Both the position numbers and the translations under genes were made by a program. Source: Planctomycetia bacterium (GTDB taxonomy: Bacteria > Planctomycetota > Planctomycetia > Pirellulales > UBA1268). Taken from it: DNA of 64,000 nt. The first letter of the stretch is position 1. Every line of letters starts with the position of its first letter. The stretch spans positions 15,745 to 79,744 of the forward strand of contig JBKDMX010000015.1 in assembly GCA_046343855.1 (NCBI GenBank). The letters run 5' to 3'. The notes below the pieces were generated by a model that was not told where the DNA came from, did not search any database, and worked only from the letters and a program-made list of their open reading frames with translations. Positions 30,180-38,815 of the stretch are shown here, one piece after another.

Positions 30180-31039
30180 GCCCGCTTGGGGGGATTCCCT
30201 ACAACACGCTCGTCGTGGCCGCCGGCGTGGCGGCGGTGGGATTCGCCGCCGGCGTGATCGGCAGCCTGGGGCTGTTGCGGAAGCGAGCCCTGGCCGGCGA
30301 CGCGGCAGCGCACGCCACGCTCATGGGCGTGGCGGCCGCGTTTCTCGCGACCGGCCGCCGCGATCTCCCCATGCTCCTCCTGGGCGCCCTCGTGGCGGCG
30401 GTCGCCAGCCTCGGCGTGCTCGTCTTGATCCGCCGTTGGACGCGCACCCGCGACGATGCGGCGACGGCCATCGTGCTCGGCGTCTCGTTCGGCCTCGGGA
30501 TCACGCTCATCTCCGGCATCACCGCCCGCGGCATTCCCGGCGGCGGCGGGCTCGAGCAGTTTCTGCTCGGCCACACCGCCGCGCTCACGGCGGCGGATGC
30601 CGTGCTCCTCGCGGCGGTCTCTGTCGTGGCTGTGGCAACGCTCGTCGTGGGCTTCAAGGAGGCGGTGCTCGTCGCCTTCGATCCGGCGTTCGCCGCGGCC
30701 ACGGGCTGGCCGGTCGCGGTCGTCGATTATCTGCTCGTCGCGCTCGTCGCAGTCATGGTCGTCGTGGGGCTGCCCGCGGCCGGGGCGGTGCTCGTGACGG
30801 CGCTCGTCGTGATCCCGCCGGCCGCCGCGCGGCAGTGGACCGATCGCGTCGGCACCATGCTCCCACTTGCCGGAATGATCGGCCTGGTCTCCGCCGTCGC
30901 GGGCGTCGCGGCGAGCGCCGTTTTTCCGCGGCTGCCGACCGGGCCGATGATCGTGCTGGTCGCGGCGGCGATGTTCGGCCTGTCGGTACTGGCGGCGGCG
31001 ATCCGTGGCCGGCTCGCAGCGCGGAGGCCGCTCGCATGA
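30176..31039 (+). CDS. troC: Metal ABC transporter permease (TroC-like)
   Basis: ALAGDAAAHATL.G, AFDPAFA, IPPAAARQWT, PTGP. Confidence 0.9.
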   Translation: MSPLGGIPYNTLVVAAGVAAVGFAAGVIGSLGLLRKRALAGDAAAHATLMGVAAAFLATGRRDLPMLLLGALVAAVASLGVLVLIRRWTRTRDDAATAIVLGVSFGLGITLISGITARGIPGGGGLEQFLLGHTAALTAADAVLLAAVSVVAVATLVVGFKEAVLVAFDPAFAAATGWPVAVVDYLLVALVAVMVVVGLPAAGAVLVTALVVIPPAAARQWTDRVGTMLPLAGMIGLVSAVAGVAASAVFPRLPTGPMIVLVAAAMFGLSVLAAAIRGRLAARRPLA

Positions 31040-32331
31040 CGATCGCCGCTGGGTGGCTTTCGGAGCAGGCCGTGATGCACGGCTGGGCGATGGCCACGGC
31101 GGCCGTGGTGTCGGCGGGCTGCGCGCTCGTCGGCACGCTGCTGGTCGTGCGCCGCATGAGCCTGTTGGGCGACGCGATCAGCCATGCCGTCTTGCCTGGC
31201 ATCGTCGTCGCGGTGCTTGCGGGCGGACGGATGGGCGGGCCAATCGTCCTGGCCGGTGCCACCGCGACGGCGCTTTTCACCGTCTGGCTCACGCGGTCGC
31301 TCGCGGGGCGGCCCGGCGTGTCCGAGGACGCAGCCGCGGGAATCGTGTTCACGACGCTCTTCGCGGTCGGGGTCGTGCTCGTCTCGGCGCTGGCCTCGCG
31401 GGTCGATCTCGACGCCTCGTGCGTGCTCCACGGCATCCTCGAGCTCGTGCCGTTCGACACGGTGCCGCTGGCGGGCTTCGAGATTCCGCGCGCGTTTCTC
31501 ACCGGCGCGATCGTGCTCGCAGCCCTGTCCGTCGCGGCGATGGTGAGCTGGAAGGAACAGCTCTTCGTCGCCTTCGACAGCGACGCGGCGCAGGCCGCGG
31601 GCATGCCGGTGGGGCTGGCGACGACAGGCCTGCTCGCGGCGACGGCGCTGGCCACCGTGGCGAGCTTCGAGGCCGTGGGGGCGGTCCTCGTCGTGGCGAT
31701 GCTCGTCGTGCCGGCCGCGACCGCCGAAGTGCTCGTGCATCGGCTGCACTGGATGGCATTCGTCGCCATGCTGATGGCGGTCGTTGCCTCCTGCGTCGGC
31801 TATCTCGCCGCCTGGCACTTCAACACGAGCGCCGCCGGGATGATCGCAGTCGTGCTCGGCCTGGGCTATCTCGCCGCTGCGCTCGTCGCGCCGGATGGCG
31901 TCGTGGCGCGGCTGGCCGCGCGGGCGTGGCTGGCGTGGCGAATCACGTGCGAAGACTGTCTCGCCGCGCTCTGGCGCGGAGAGGAGGCAGGGGCGGTCGC
32001 GGCGGTTCCCCCGGCGGTATTTCCGGCATCGCTCCGTCAGCATGCGGCCCTTCTCTGGCTGCGAGCCAGCGGGCGAATCGACGCGGTGGCCGATGGCGGC
32101 TGGCGGCTGTCGCCACGGGGCCGGGCCGAGGCGGAGACGGTCGTGCGGTCGCACCGCCTCTGGGAGGCCTGGCTCGGCCGCCACGCCGAATTGCCGCTCG
32201 ACCATCTCCATCCGCCGGCGGAATGGATCGAGCATCATCTGGGCGCGGCCGTCCGCGAGCGGCTCGAGGCGGAAGTGGGCGTGGCGGCCAGCGACCCCCA
32301 CGGCCGCACGATCCCGCCGGAACGAACGTAG
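31036..32331 (+). CDS. Metal ABC transporter permease (TroD-like) fused to a DtxR-type metal-binding/dimerisation domain
   Basis: Permease motif SLLGDAISHAVLPG, followed by VRSHRLWEAWL, AEWIEH and DPHGRTIP. Confidence 0.9.
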   Translation: MTIAAGWLSEQAVMHGWAMATAAVVSAGCALVGTLLVVRRMSLLGDAISHAVLPGIVVAVLAGGRMGGPIVLAGATATALFTVWLTRSLAGRPGVSEDAAAGIVFTTLFAVGVVLVSALASRVDLDASCVLHGILELVPFDTVPLAGFEIPRAFLTGAIVLAALSVAAMVSWKEQLFVAFDSDAAQAAGMPVGLATTGLLAATALATVASFEAVGAVLVVAMLVVPAATAEVLVHRLHWMAFVAMLMAVVASCVGYLAAWHFNTSAAGMIAVVLGLGYLAAALVAPDGVVARLAARAWLAWRITCEDCLAALWRGEEAGAVAAVPPAVFPASLRQHAALLWLRASGRIDAVADGGWRLSPRGRAEAETVVRSHRLWEAWLGRHAELPLDHLHPPAEWIEHHLGAAVRERLEAEVGVAASDPHGRTIPPERT

Positions 32332-34356: not shown

Positions 34357-36066
34357 CTACCGGGTCTCGTTCAGGTGCTCGAGCAGGATGCGCTCGATTT
34401 CCATCACCGTCTGCGGGTGGTGGTGCACGCGGGTATGGGTGGCCGGCACTTCGAGCTCGCTCGTGACACCCGGCAGCCGCGCGCTCGATGCCGGCACGAC
34501 GCAATCGTCGGGGCCGCTCACGAGCGATTGATGTGCGGTGCCGATGATGCTGTGCGTGGTCACCCAGCAGGGAGTGCGGAGCTCGCGGAGGGCCCGCAGG
34601 ATGCTCGAGCTGGGCTCGAGGATGTCGATCGTCGTCGGCAGTGAGCGCTGATAATCGGAGTGGAAGGCATCGGGGTTCATGACGACGGCCTCGTCGTGGA
34701 TCGCCTTCGACTGCGGGGGCTGCTGCACCGTGAGCGCCGCAATCCTGCCCACGCCGCGCGACGCCAGCGAGGAGCCGGCGTGGGGTGTGGCGACGAACAC
34801 GACCCGCTTCACGAAGGGGAGCGGCTCGAAGAAATAGTTCTGCCGGACGCGTTCCTTGAGCTCCGGCCGCAGCACGATCTGCTCGAAGGGCACGTAGGAG
34901 ATCGCGTCCCAGAGCTGCGTGCCGGGATCGACGACCTGCAGCTTCGCGTGCAGGCCGCCCATGCTGTGGCCGACGAGCACCATGTTTTGCAGCGCGCGAT
35001 CGGTGCCCTGGGGATCGAGCCGCTGCACCGCTGTTTGCAATTCCCGGCGGAGCACGGCGGCGGAGTGGAGAAACGTCGCGCCGGTCGGGTAGCGATAGAC
35101 CCAGGCTTCGTAGCGCCGGTGAAACGTCGGCCAGGTGCGGAGCTCGTTGATCAGGTCGAACCACGTGCCTTCGTCGCTCGCCAGGCCGTGGATGAACACG
35201 ACCGGGATGCGGCCTGGCTGATGGGGCTCGAGAAACTCGAGTTTCGGCACCGTGTCGCCGCGGCCGTAGGGCTGCAGAAACCCGGTGATGCTCGACGTCT
35301 TCGGCATGCCCTCGAGCATGTCCAAGAGCGGCAGCGAGAGATCCGCCGCCAGGAGCGGCCGCGCCGGCCCCACGTGCACGGCGGCGATCTCGACGGGATT
35401 CGCGAGGTCGAGGATCGCCGGCGCATGATCCCGCGCGAGCGGACCGGAGAACTTCTGCAGGAAGTTCTCGTCGCCCGGCATCTTGAATCGCAGCACCGCC
35501 GTCGCCGCCAGGGATTGCCGCGGCGGCGCGAATTCCTCGCCCGTTCCGCCCACTCCCCGCGCGAGCCGCACGGCAACGGGCAGGCCGAAGCCGCCGCGGA
35601 CGTGCTGCCGCGTGAGCCGGCGGTCGCCGGCCGGGGGCCGCGCCACCACGCGCTCGATGGCCGACGCCTCGACCGGCAGCGCCCGCGTCTCGATCGGCAC
35701 GCAGATCGGCTTCCAGGCGGGGCCGACCACGAGGCCGTTGCCAGAGAGCCGGCCGTGCTGGTCGGCCGTCACGAGCAGCCCCTCGAGCGCGGCGGCATAG
35801 AGGCACGATGCCTCCTCGAGGATCGGCCGCGATCCGGGGCAGGTCCAGACGGCGTTCCAGGCGGCCTCGGCGGACGCATAGAAGCCGTCGACCGCCCGCA
35901 CGTCTCCCTTCTCGGCCATCGTGGCCGATGCATTTCCGTAGTCGACGGCCTGCTTCAGAAAGCCGCGCGCCGTCTGTTCGGGATTCTCCCGCTCTGCGGC
36001 TGCGATCGGCGCGGCGCAGAGGCAGACGACGATCGCGGCACCGCGCAGCATCCACGCCAACGTCAT
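34357..36066 (-). CDS. Secreted alpha/beta hydrolase (esterase/lipase)
   Basis: Signal peptide, PVVFIHGL, nucleophile elbow GHSMGG, ATPHAGS, DCVVP, C-terminal His. Confidence 0.88.
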   Translation of the reverse strand: MTLAWMLRGAAIVVCLCAAPIAAAERENPEQTARGFLKQAVDYGNASATMAEKGDVRAVDGFYASAEAAWNAVWTCPGSRPILEEASCLYAAALEGLLVTADQHGRLSGNGLVVGPAWKPICVPIETRALPVEASAIERVVARPPAGDRRLTRQHVRGGFGLPVAVRLARGVGGTGEEFAPPRQSLAATAVLRFKMPGDENFLQKFSGPLARDHAPAILDLANPVEIAAVHVGPARPLLAADLSLPLLDMLEGMPKTSSITGFLQPYGRGDTVPKLEFLEPHQPGRIPVVFIHGLASDEGTWFDLINELRTWPTFHRRYEAWVYRYPTGATFLHSAAVLRRELQTAVQRLDPQGTDRALQNMVLVGHSMGGLHAKLQVVDPGTQLWDAISYVPFEQIVLRPELKERVRQNYFFEPLPFVKRVVFVATPHAGSSLASRGVGRIAALTVQQPPQSKAIHDEAVVMNPDAFHSDYQRSLPTTIDILEPSSSILRALRELRTPCWVTTHSIIGTAHQSLVSGPDDCVVPASSARLPGVTSELEVPATHTRVHHHPQTVMEIERILLEHLNETR

Positions 36067-36266: not shown

Positions 36267-36677
36267 CTATCGCGATTGCAGCGAAAAGTCGATCCGGTTG
36301 GTTCCGGGCTGAACCACAGCCTCGAGCACGGTGGCGGCGTGATACCGCGGCGGCAGGATTTCGCGGCCGCCGTTCTCCTCCGTCGCCGTCATGATCCGCA
36401 CGGTGTGTCGGCCGAGATTCGCCCCTTCGATGTCGCGGAGATAGCGGAGGCGGTAGCCGCCGGCCGAGTCGGTGGAGCCGAGCGACGTGCGGCCGGGGCC
36501 GTCGGGCGTGAAGTGCACGGCGGCGGCGGCGAGCGGGCGTCCGTCGAGCGTGACGGTGCCCGTCACCGTGCCCAGCGGTGGGCGATTGTCAGGGGAGCAG
36601 CCCGCCAACGCCGCCAGCAGCAGGGCCGAGGCGAGCGTGTTCCGCGCAGCCAATGGGGAGGGCATGCAATCGCTCAT
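36267..36677 (-). CDS. Lipoprotein with carboxypeptidase regulatory-like domain (usual DUF1559 partner)
   Basis: Lipobox LAGC, VTGTVTLDG.PL, TDSAG.Y, LPPRY, N.IDF.L. ATGA overlap with the upstream gene. Confidence 0.85.
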   Translation of the reverse strand: MSDCMPSPLAARNTLASALLLAALAGCSPDNRPPLGTVTGTVTLDGRPLAAAAVHFTPDGPGRTSLGSTDSAGGYRLRYLRDIEGANLGRHTVRIMTATEENGGREILPPRYHAATVLEAVVQPGTNRIDFSLQSR

Positions 36678-38518
36678 GGCGCGAGGGCGAGCGATGCGGA
36701 CTGGCCATCGCGCATCGAGCCGAGCAGTGGGAAGACGGCGTTGTTGTCTTTGGCATCGATGAATTCGTCGAGCCAGTGGACGGAGCCGTCGGCCATCGCA
36801 AACGACGCCCCGCCCGGATGGTCGCTGCCGGGCGACTCGAAGAAGAGGTTGTTCATGCCGCCGGGATTGGAGTGCGTCGGGTCGGTGGACGTGGTGAAGA
36901 GCGTCGCCACGCCGCCGGCGGCCCAGCCATCGTGGCTCGTGCGGTTGTGGGTGTCGGCGGCGCTCGTCGCGCCGGTGATCGGCCGCAGTCGCTGCATCTC
37001 CCCGAGCATGATCGTATTCGAGAGGCCGTCGCGAATCGCTCCGGTAGCCACGCCCAGATTCGGCAGAAACACACTCTCGCGCCGGCCCACGGAGCCGGGG
37101 ATCGCGGTGCCACGGTGGGCGAAACGATGGTCTTCGGAGGTGGCATTGAGAAAGCCGTCGAGCCGGCCGTAGCAGCCGCCGTAGTCTGTGCCGCCGCCGC
37201 GCCAGGCAGTGGCGACGAGGTTGCGATGGTCGTCGCGTCCCGTGCGAATCCCCGACCGCCGGGTCGGGCAATAGAGCAGGCGGATGTCGGCCTGCGCGAT
37301 CAAGGCATTGCCGAGCACGTTGGTCTGCCTGTCCCAGGAATTGAAGACCGCCGTTTCGTCGAGGAAGGGGAGTGTTTCGAGGATCCAGCTCGTGCCGTGC
37401 TTGCTGCCGGCGGGTGAGACGGAGGTGAGTTGCGCCTCTCCCCATGGGTTCCAGCAGCCGGCGCAGGTGGCGGTATTGAATCCTTCGCTGACGATCGCGG
37501 CCGGCGGGAAACGCGAGTTGGCATTCTCGTAGCCGAGGACGCCGAGCGCGACCTGCTTCAGGTTGTTTTGGCAGTGGCTCCGCCGGGCCGACTCCCGCGC
37601 CGACTGCACGGCCGGCAGCAAAAGGCCCACCAGCAGGCCGATGATGGCGATGGCGACGAGCAATTCCGTGAGCGTGAAGCCGCGGCGCGGGGCCGGCCGC
37701 GGACGCCGGCGCGCGAGGAGGATGACGGAGCAGGCCCCGCCGGCGATCGCGGATGCAAGGGCAGAGGGCTCCGGCACGAACGCGATCTGGAAATTGTCGA
37801 TCGCGATCGTGTCGCGGGCGCCCGTGCTTGTGGACGCCGACAGGGCCGCGACACGGAACCAAACGCTCGGCTGGTTCGACATCGCCGTGAGCGCCGCGCT
37901 CGAGAACGTGATGGGCGTCGTGCCCCAGACGCCGGGGTCAGCCCAGGTGGCGATCGTGGTGAACGACGTGGGAGTCGTGCCGAGGCCGTATTGGAGGGAC
38001 CAGGTGACCGACCGCGGCTCAACGTCGAGCAGCATCAGGTCGATCGAGCCGGCGGTGAGCGTCAGGCGGGTGGAGTCGAAGTTCAGATTGAACGCCGCAC
38101 CGGGGTCGCCAAAGTCACTGGCAGTGCGCACACCGACGGCTCGGTTTGTCGAAGCGCGTTGCGATTCAGTGGAGGCGTTGCTCGAGAGGCCGGTGGCCGA
38201 GGCCGTGTTGATGAATCCCTTGGCGTTATCGCCCCACGTCTGCTTGATGACGCTCGGGCCGACCGTGCCGAGCGCAGTTCCGGTGGCTCCGGTGCGCACA
38301 TCCCAGCCTGCCGGCAGCGTGGCCGAACCCGAGGCGGTCCCGAGGGAATCGAACGACTGGACGTAACTCGTGCCGCTCAGCGTGAGCAGGCCGGCTGCGG
38401 TAGGGCTGGCAGCAATCGCCACGCAGGCTGCTGCGAGCGCCAACAGAATCGCCTGAACCCATCCTTGCCCTGCGCGGACTCCCCTTCCTGTGGGAAGCCC
38501 CTGGCTGCCTGCCTTCAA
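36674..38518 (-). CDS. Fusion: signal peptide + beta-rich domain + PEP-CTERM signal + prepilin N-methylation motif + DUF1559 domain
   Basis: FVPEP-hydrophobic-RRR runs directly into RRG|FTLTELLVAIAIIGLLVGLLLPAVQSARESARR..CQNNLKQ. C-terminal HPGGASFAMADG. TTG start uncertain. Confidence 0.9.
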   Translation of the reverse strand: MKAGSQGLPTGRGVRAGQGWVQAILLALAAACVAIAASPTAAGLLTLSGTSYVQSFDSLGTASGSATLPAGWDVRTGATGTALGTVGPSVIKQTWGDNAKGFINTASATGLSSNASTESQRASTNRAVGVRTASDFGDPGAAFNLNFDSTRLTLTAGSIDLMLLDVEPRSVTWSLQYGLGTTPTSFTTIATWADPGVWGTTPITFSSAALTAMSNQPSVWFRVAALSASTSTGARDTIAIDNFQIAFVPEPSALASAIAGGACSVILLARRRPRPAPRRGFTLTELLVAIAIIGLLVGLLLPAVQSARESARRSHCQNNLKQVALGVLGYENANSRFPPAAIVSEGFNTATCAGCWNPWGEAQLTSVSPAGSKHGTSWILETLPFLDETAVFNSWDRQTNVLGNALIAQADIRLLYCPTRRSGIRTGRDDHRNLVATAWRGGGTDYGGCYGRLDGFLNATSEDHRFAHRGTAIPGSVGRRESVFLPNLGVATGAIRDGLSNTIMLGEMQRLRPITGATSAADTHNRTSHDGWAAGGVATLFTTSTDPTHSNPGGMNNLFFESPGSDHPGGASFAMADGSVHWLDEFIDAKDNNAVFPLLGSMRDGQSASLALAP

Positions 38519-38658
38519 CGATCGTTCCGAAACCTAAGCGTGATGAATCCGGGAATGCCTCAGGGGGCACTACTGGTAATGCGAAAGAGGGGCATTCTAT
38601 AGAGGGGGTGAAACAGTGCAAGGGGTGGTATGAAAAAAAGTAAACGGCAAGGCGTGCG

Positions 38659-38815
38659 GACAGGCACGGAGGCCTGTCGTACGAGCGAGCGGAGCTCGCC
38701 AAGCGAAAATCGGCAGGATGCTGATGTTTCGCGTGTCGCGAGACAGGCACGGAGGCCTGGCGTACGAGCGAGCGGAGCTCGCCAAGGACACATGAGCAGG
38801 ATGCTCATGTGTCCG
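38659..38815 (+). repeat. Tandem of two 83-bp units: REP-B (minus) plus family G double hairpin
   Basis: Unit: GACAGGCACGGAGGCCTG.CGTAC, then GA-GCGAGC-GGA-GCTCGC-CAA, then stem-AGGAT-stem. The long stems differ between units but each pairs. Confidence 0.88.

Follow-up and report, generated by a model that had tools for sequence, protein, structure and literature searches.

Exosortase substrates of the PEP-CTERM type (TIGR02595, PF07589; PMC1569441) and the DUF1559/H-X9-DG prepilin-like proteins of Planctomycetota (PMC8567305), a large expanded family that is often flanked by signal-peptide genes, are described as separate groups of exported proteins. Here we analyze a gene in which features of both groups stand in one reading frame. 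It occupies positions 36674-38518 on the minus strand of a 64,000-nucleotide stretch from a Planctomycetia bacterium (Pirellulales, UBA1268; contig JBKDMX010000015.1, positions 15,745 to 79,744), which we call the window. With PEP-CTERM substrates the encoded protein shares a Ser/Thr-rich domain, the PEP motif, a hydrophobic helix, a basic cluster, to judge by eye a signal peptide, and an exosortase in the genome, and its cargo domain is also found in ordinary PEP-CTERM proteins. With the DUF1559 prepilins it shares an N_methyl match, an SBP_bac_10 domain, the H-X9-DG motif, and a following lipoprotein gene. It differs from the former in that 363 residues follow the PEP motif, as against a median of three, so that the signal is not at the extreme C-terminus where the free relatives of the cargo carry it, and in that a second membrane-spanning exported protein comes after it. 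It differs from the latter in that the class III prepilin site comes only at residue 280, after a whole exported protein where a short cytoplasmic leader would be usual. The window protein is an ordinary member of neither family, although each of its halves probably works like one.

Sorting signals placed in the middle of a protein have been described before. A Haloferax ArtA substrate fused to NifU carries its tripartite sorting signal mid-protein, and processing by the archaeosortase was shown (PMC6098224); for Myxococcus MXAN_5598, which has an internal MYXO-CTERM, processing was proposed (PMC11980579). Neither case comes with a prepilin site or a second protease, and the Haloferax fusion is described as strain-specific, whereas the layout described here recurs over many gene pairs. 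Substrates of the GlyGly-CTERM/rhombosortase and MYXO-CTERM/myxosortase systems depend on type II secretion to reach the surface (10.1101/2023.06.07.544157; PMC11980579) and provide a precedent for a sorting signal linked to type IV filament machinery, but no cognate pilin is encoded with each substrate. PMC6668835 makes no mention of Planctomycetes. In line with the first-pass annotation, made from the letters alone, which knew of no description of this architecture, we found no account of a PEP-CTERM-prepilin fusion in a literature search of mainly open-access main texts; architecture tables in supplements could list it. A bacterial membrane polyprotein reportedly exists in the Bradyrhizobium cytochrome b-c1 product of fbcH, which is split at an internal signal-peptide-like site; there, the single cut is said to be made by the periplasm-facing signal peptidase, with no sorting signal or pilin involved.

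The frame spans 614 codons without an internal stop, in a genome of 67% GC from an organism detected in freshwater sequencing runs, and every element that the first-pass annotation had named is in place: leader, beta domain of about 205 residues, VPEP, hydrophobic helix, Arg cluster, G|FTLTE, and DUF1559, in this order. A TTG start and a leader of about 22 codons, common to unfused DUF1559 orthologues, are followed by a predicted Sec signal peptide (together aa 1-42; 38393-38518, minus strand, as are all features of the gene). A helix is predicted at aa 16-33 in a structural model, at low pLDDT; the hydrophobic stretch, the AxA-like end, and the cleavage site of the signal peptide were judged by eye. 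The cargo (aa 43-247; 37778-38392) is a Ser/Thr-rich domain (Ser+Thr = 28%) of about 205 residues, predicted from its relatives and Foldseek to be a beta-sandwich resembling carbohydrate-binding modules (CBMs) or adhesins. It ends at the VPEP exosortase motif (aa 248-251; 37766-37777), after which come a transmembrane helix predicted from hydropathy and the model (aa 252-269; 37712-37765) and the Arg-rich linker, predicted to be cytoplasmic, RRRPRPAPRR (aa 270-279; 37682-37711). The class III prepilin site G280|F281 (codons at 37681-37679 and 37678-37676), with glutamate at +5 (E285) and a long pilin alpha-1 helix, covers 37517-37681 and is matched above cut-off by both Pfam N_methyl (aa 278-300; 30.2 bits against 21.2) and TIGR02532 (27.6 against 16.3). 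The DUF1559 domain (36677-37606) had been called complete; SBP_bac_10 matches aa 305-589 with 130.2 bits (cut-off 23.3) and TIGR04294 scores 29.2 (cut-off 19), with the H-X9-DG motif at 36820-36785.

The architecture is real, conserved, and recurrent, and it is assembled from known parts: the gene is one frame, both motifs are conserved, the layout recurs in other gene pairs, and both enzymes are encoded in the genome. Judging from sequence, we lean towards reading the product as a polyprotein in which an exported protein in its entirety takes the place of the pilin 'leader' and which prepilin peptidase and exosortase would split. Comparison with relatives suggests that a single translation from the 5' start yields all 614 residues. 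The signal peptide would export the cargo, the PEP-CTERM helix would stop transfer with the Arg cluster kept inside, and the pilin helix would re-initiate export of DUF1559, an out-in-out topology that the Sec and positive-inside rules predict. Prepilin peptidase has its aspartates on the cytoplasmic face of the membrane (PMC3584216) and would cut on that side at G280|F281 to give a mature DUF1559 pilin-like protein with the predicted N-terminus (N-methyl-)FTLTELLVAIAII, and exosortase would cut at VPEP to yield the beta-sandwich cargo for surface display. The Arg linker would act as PEP-CTERM tail and prepilin leader at once, and the effect would be a fixed 1:1 co-production of cargo and pilin, which are normally translationally coupled neighbors. 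Such a join would form easily: the basic cluster that each signal requires falls at one and the same position, so that neither signal is damaged when the usual overlap loses its stop and its ATG.

A misassembled junction is rejected, as single Logan contigs cross it without a gap in all seven DNA runs, any of which may be the source sample. Six of these runs show no difference to the window, and one difference is found in the 1,100-base contig of run X18, at 38612 and thus off the junction. In the single RNA run (X20, share 0.13), low-depth contigs lie over 38100-38519 and none over the junction, which is uninformative on a joined transcript.

Both motifs are conserved in close relatives. A protein search returned 21 further clusters with both motifs in one frame, 20 of them with linkers of 32-61 residues and one (P0013) with a linker of 377, and full-length identity extends down to 55%; P0023 and P0073 carry unrelated cargo on the same DUF1559 subfamily. 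P249, E250, and P251 are invariant in all 22 aligned rows, F281, L283, and E285 are invariant as well, and G280 is kept in 21 of 22. Averaged over the alignment columns of 21 rows, identity reaches 0.98 in VPEP and 0.91 in GFTLxELL, compared to 0.75 for the cargo, 0.59 for the basic stretch, and 0.46 for the helix, and across eight genome loci the codons of PEP and of the G/F/L/E positions show synonymous changes only. Invariant motifs beside a drifting linker indicate that both processing motifs are maintained inside the fusion. For the window's family, this answers the caution in PMC1569441 that PEP-CTERM proteins with long tails may be non-functional. Among 176 genomes of the host's family, 62 contain a DUF1559 orthologue (E<=1e-60), and eight, from four genera, have it fused to the window's type of cargo. 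Retention in these eight genomes and in clusters down to 55% identity largely refutes, for the window's family, the explanation that such fusions are non-functional accidents, that is, read-through, assembly, or binning errors that recur because the genes are often adjacent.

Beyond the close relatives, the fusion appears in many other gene pairs. A junction profile run over 1.84 billion representatives gave 150 listed proteins, of which 25 match both motifs in one frame and 24 were kept; together with the 21 proteins of the close-relative search and 10 genome loci, 55 fused junctions were collected. P0233, L115 (dubious), and L072 were dropped as false fusions. Fused proteins whose cargo is 100 residues or longer number 48 and form 15 BLAST groups, a minimum for the 55 junctions as a whole; cargo types include dockerin-bearing, PATR, phosphoesterase, and GH-like proteins. 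Two of these cargos look enzyme-like, one in P0200 and one in P0202: an endonuclease/exonuclease/phosphatase domain with dockerin, and a GH43/GH32-like domain. In a DUF1559 tree of 147 rows (FastTree; one row, L072, mislabelled as fused), the fused label needs 21 changes, 12 of them forced by starred branches, and in a tree of 50 chosen rows (IQ-TREE, LG+G4) it needs 17, of which 10 are forced; these counts combine gains and losses of fusion. A single clade of fused DUF1559 domains is rejected (p-AU 1.6e-11). The independent homologues on which the first-pass annotation had made its proposal depend thus exist in numbers, and they are recurrent and modular rather than a single family.

In favor of accidents, 8 of the 10 distant representatives of the fusion that were checked cluster with no other sequence at 90% identity, and read-through errors could be among them. 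Judged by eye from the protein sequence, P0292 ends in what resembles an out-of-frame prepilin, and PMC1569441 comments on long-tailed PEP-CTERM proteins as quoted above. Several of the distant singletons belong to wider multi-member clades, however, and fused clades with more than one member include P0133/P0150/P0263, P0148/P0166, P0196/P0230, and L100/L103/L104/L105/P0174, while the P0154 cluster alone has 64 members. Taken with the conservation of the window's own fusion, we regard accidents as a highly improbable explanation.

The fused gene is a minority form of a very common gene pair, in which a PEP-CTERM gene precedes a prepilin gene. A DNA pattern detected such pairs in 99 of the 176 family genomes, with no control matches. 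Among 121 listed pairs, judged PEP-CTERM-like by eye and part of a larger set with 166 further matches, 30 are in frame and 24 and 67 are in the other frames. Twenty in-frame pairs were fetched and comprise 11 credible fusions, one dubious case, and eight split pairs, and all eight with a spacing of at most 102 nt are fused. In the window genome itself, a prepilin site lies no more than 300 nt downstream of 6 of the 19 PEP-CTERM hits, where 0.0012 would be expected per site; five of these pairs are split and the sixth is the window fusion. A genome-wide scan with a stricter pattern, which demands GAG-CTN codons, gave at least 52 real pairs among 120 matches listed, 60 of which were noise; 48 of these pairs are split and four fused. 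The split pairs come mainly from Planctomycetota and Verrucomicrobiota, also from Armatimonadota and others, and the four fused ones are all from Planctomycetota. The pattern demanding GAG-CTN matched none of 63 loci, and a variant missed L066. In a sample of the phylum, 26 of 401 genomes match the pair pattern, with no credible fusion among the 23 junctions listed of 27 new loci; L122 and L133 are in frame, yet their upstream part is not a PEP-CTERM signal. As the fusion is the minority form, the cargo is dispensable for most DUF1559 orthologues.

The predominance of split pairs raises the question of whether the pilin half still has a start of its own. The absence of an in-frame ATG, GTG, or TTG between VPEP and the glycine, as first annotated, holds, and over 37679-37800 ATG is absent in any frame. 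Among 18 fused loci no in-frame start position is shared, and the junctions of the window, of G142, and of locus L100 in G092 contain no in-frame start codon. A methionine within 18 residues before the glycine occurs in 10 of 55 fused but 31 of 38 split junctions, a difference whose significance is inflated by related rows. The valine codon of VPEP is GTT in two of eight loci and is therefore not a conserved start. At the other end of the gene, a TTG or GTG start lies 50-56 codons before the conserved SYxQxFD motif in all eight fused orthologue loci, and a similar leader precedes unfused orthologues, joining RR|GFTL directly at the same locus in G143. A leader common to the fused gene and its unfused counterpart in G143 places the cargo inside the pilin gene's own leader. 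From these comparisons we infer a single 5' start, with no sign of an internal one.

Linker length ranges from 29 to 68 residues, and reaches 377 in G004 (L039, G004:C321, protein P0013), where the linker is 948 bases longer and holds the decayed antisense remnant of an IS110-like transposase (family assigned by eye). This linker contains no stop in the fused frame, compared to 7-13 in the other five frames, and 40 of 20,000 Markov simulations stayed open, a post hoc figure from a single case. An open frame would be expected here of a linker that is thrown away, ahead of a pilin that relies on the upstream start. If, instead, translation of the pilin part began on its own at an internal start, leaderless or non-canonical, the fusion would be a tolerated stop loss in a coupled operon. 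Split pairs being the rule, with an enrichment of the overlap frame (67 of 121 listed pairs, frame 2; 32 of 52 among the genome-wide matches listed), would suit this explanation, as would the methionines in 10 of 55 fused linkers, in-frame GTG or TTG codons in several, and a leader-like MKFRR...GF stretch in G171. It is hard to reconcile with junctions that have no in-frame start codon (window, G142, L100) and no conserved start position elsewhere, with an ancestral pilin start at the 5' end of the fused gene, and with a frame that stayed open through a 948-base expansion, and we consider it improbable.

Whether the upstream half carries a PEP-CTERM signal, as the first-pass annotation had claimed, depends on the kind of evidence. 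The motif, the helix, the basic cluster, and positional homology uphold the claim, whereas the curated models do not, as the window protein stays below all of their cut-offs: NF038120 scores 20.8 bits against a cut-off of 80, and PF07589 gives no match at E<=1, leaving the protein out of the 21 PF07589 matches in the genome. With a custom model built from 50 free tails, the window tail ranks 17th of 19 in the genome (16.5 bits). Fused relatives do reach a curated cut-off, namely P0015 (at cut-off), P0154, P0166, P0180, and P0202. Among 90 proteins related to the N domain, xPEP stands at the corresponding site in 53, almost always with a hydrophobic helix, a basic tail, and the C-terminus after it, and 14 others end in PF18962, the C-terminal sorting domain of the type IX secretion system. 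The N domain is thus a module that comes equipped with a surface-sorting signal in each of its contexts. The cargo domain joined to PF18962 is seen in P0363-P0377, so that one module is paired with two unrelated surface-sorting signals. The best 15-residue Kyte-Doolittle mean of the window's tail helix is 2.13, compared to medians of 2.11 for fused and 1.92 for split proteins; the structural model predicts the helix at aa 253-268, and fused linkers have a median of five Lys/Arg within their last 14 residues. By position, the window tail is nevertheless a PEP-CTERM signal.

The machinery for both cuts is present in the genome. One exosortase matches PF09721 with 207.6 bits and has Cys, Arg, and His in VDACSG, NSIRI, and FHD motifs, which we take to hold the catalytic triad. 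An A24 prepilin peptidase retains both aspartates, and parts of type II secretion and type IV pilus systems comprise six T2SSE matches, four T2SSF matches, and a secretin. Within the host's family, 17 of 19 loci (L001:118-2409, in G000:C76, and L148-L172) have, directly upstream of the exosortase gene, a gene with the four-cysteine, zinc-binding domain of PilD (A24_N) and a degenerate protease part lacking a conserved GxGD; this was seen in none of 11 loci outside the family, nor in longer stretches, several of which are cut by contig ends. A24_N gives no match in the intact A24 peptidase (L002), and together with the separate four-cysteine gene this makes PilD look split into two genes in the host's family. 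In PilD, the four-cysteine domain is needed for pilin methylation and not for cleavage (PMC3584216).

Structural predictions bear on how the pilin half may behave. The full-length AlphaFold model (mean pLDDT 43.5; below 50 for aa 300-614) was used for the N domain and helix positions only. In this modest-confidence model, the N domain is a predicted beta-sandwich with Foldseek matches to a MAM-domain protein, CBM4, and gingipain adhesin domains (E 4e-6 to 3e-5). A model starting at G280 reaches a pLDDT of 84.6, with a first helix of 52 residues at about 90. Its best structural match is the type IV pilin PilA4, a weak one (Z 5.0, rmsd 3.4, 120 aligned residues); the top 21 of 29 structural matches are pilins or pseudopilins, Foldseek returned no match at E<=0.001, and by sequence the resemblance to pilins is limited to the N-terminal helix. 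The protein might accordingly remain one polypeptide with one cut or none, an inner-membrane protein of two helices in which the pilin part stays attached to the PEP-CTERM helix, if a membrane-tethered leader is unusable or DUF1559 proteins are not routine substrates; exosortase may or may not release the cargo in that case. The weak pilin match is consistent with such tethering, as are the fractionation of Tuwongella N_methyl+SBP_bac_10 proteins, which differs from that of plain pilins (PMC8567305), and an A24 peptidase with no A24_N match. What makes tethering unlikely in our view is that G-1, F+1, and E+5 are kept in fused proteins while the adjacent linker drifts, and that linkers of 29 to 68 and up to 377 residues suit a discarded piece better than a structural hairpin.

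Several results weigh against the polyprotein reading, among them the sub-threshold PEP-CTERM scores, the dominance of split pairs, the distant singletons, and the methionines in some fused linkers, all given above. In addition, the close cargo relatives P0290 and P0291 are unfused, and a PEP-CTERM gene lies upstream in 1 of 24 unfused orthologue loci, several of which are cut by contig ends. In the literature, we found no paper on PilD cleaving any DUF1559 protein and none on PilD accepting a leader tethered by a transmembrane helix.

The surroundings of the gene include the partner lipoprotein gene that had been noted downstream (36267-36677, minus strand), which encodes an LAGC lipobox, shares an ATGA between its start and the stop of the fused gene, and matches CarboxypepD_reg below cut-off (E 2e-5); lipobox frames follow 10 of 17 loci checked. 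After it, on the same strand, lies an alpha/beta hydrolase gene (34357-36066; Abhydrolase_6, 31.4 bits). Folding predicts an RNA hairpin whose loop contains GGA a little downstream of the start codon (38476-38500, minus strand), and similar hairpins occur, by raw count, in all eight fused and in 14 of 19 unfused loci (L004-L011, L041-L062); as a whole-region fold it is not significant (z -0.5). The hairpin resembles CsrA sites, and the genome has four CsrA matches. Upstream of the gene, a repeated intergenic element (38636-38800) comprises two near-copies by eye, and many variant contigs over it pile up to about ten to twenty times the local depth. At about 31000-32331 on the plus strand, the C-terminus of a putative metal ABC permease looks by eye like an in-frame fusion to the dimerization region of a DtxR/TroR-type repressor.

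If the polyprotein reading is correct, a full exported protein would serve here as the leader of a type IV prepilin, and prepilin peptidase would split the polyprotein, a case for which we found no example in the literature. The gene would then tie together two export pathways that are usually treated as separate. It would also offer a handle on exosortase cleavage, as a long C-terminal product should be detectable in the way that an internal signal made archaeosortase activity detectable (PMC6098224), on whether the very large DUF1559 family consists of true prepilin-peptidase substrates, and on how PEP-CTERM proteins cross the outer membrane, a route that is undefined (PMC12188702). Repeated independent fusions, the common coupled pair, and the PilD Zn-domain gene beside the exosortase point to a link between both pathways. 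A wider proposal, which we put forward tentatively and regard as doubtful, is that prepilin peptidase acts as a polyprotein-processing protease and that the recurrent fusion serves as a Rosetta stone, pointing to an export module in Planctomycetota and Verrucomicrobiota in which each DUF1559 protein, with its lipoprotein, would be a dedicated pseudopilus or pilus subunit carrying, or displayed with, its own PEP-CTERM cargo. A strict cognate interface is disfavored by the exchange of cargo within one pilin subfamily and by the many orthologues that have no cargo, which holds this proposal back. Pilin-like 'fishing rods' have been hypothesized for polysaccharide uptake (PMC12078418). Should the wider proposal be true, PEP-CTERM proteins of Planctomycetota and Verrucomicrobiota would have their missing route across the outer membrane in type IV filament machinery, which would also be part of the proposed 'fishing rod' capture fibers.

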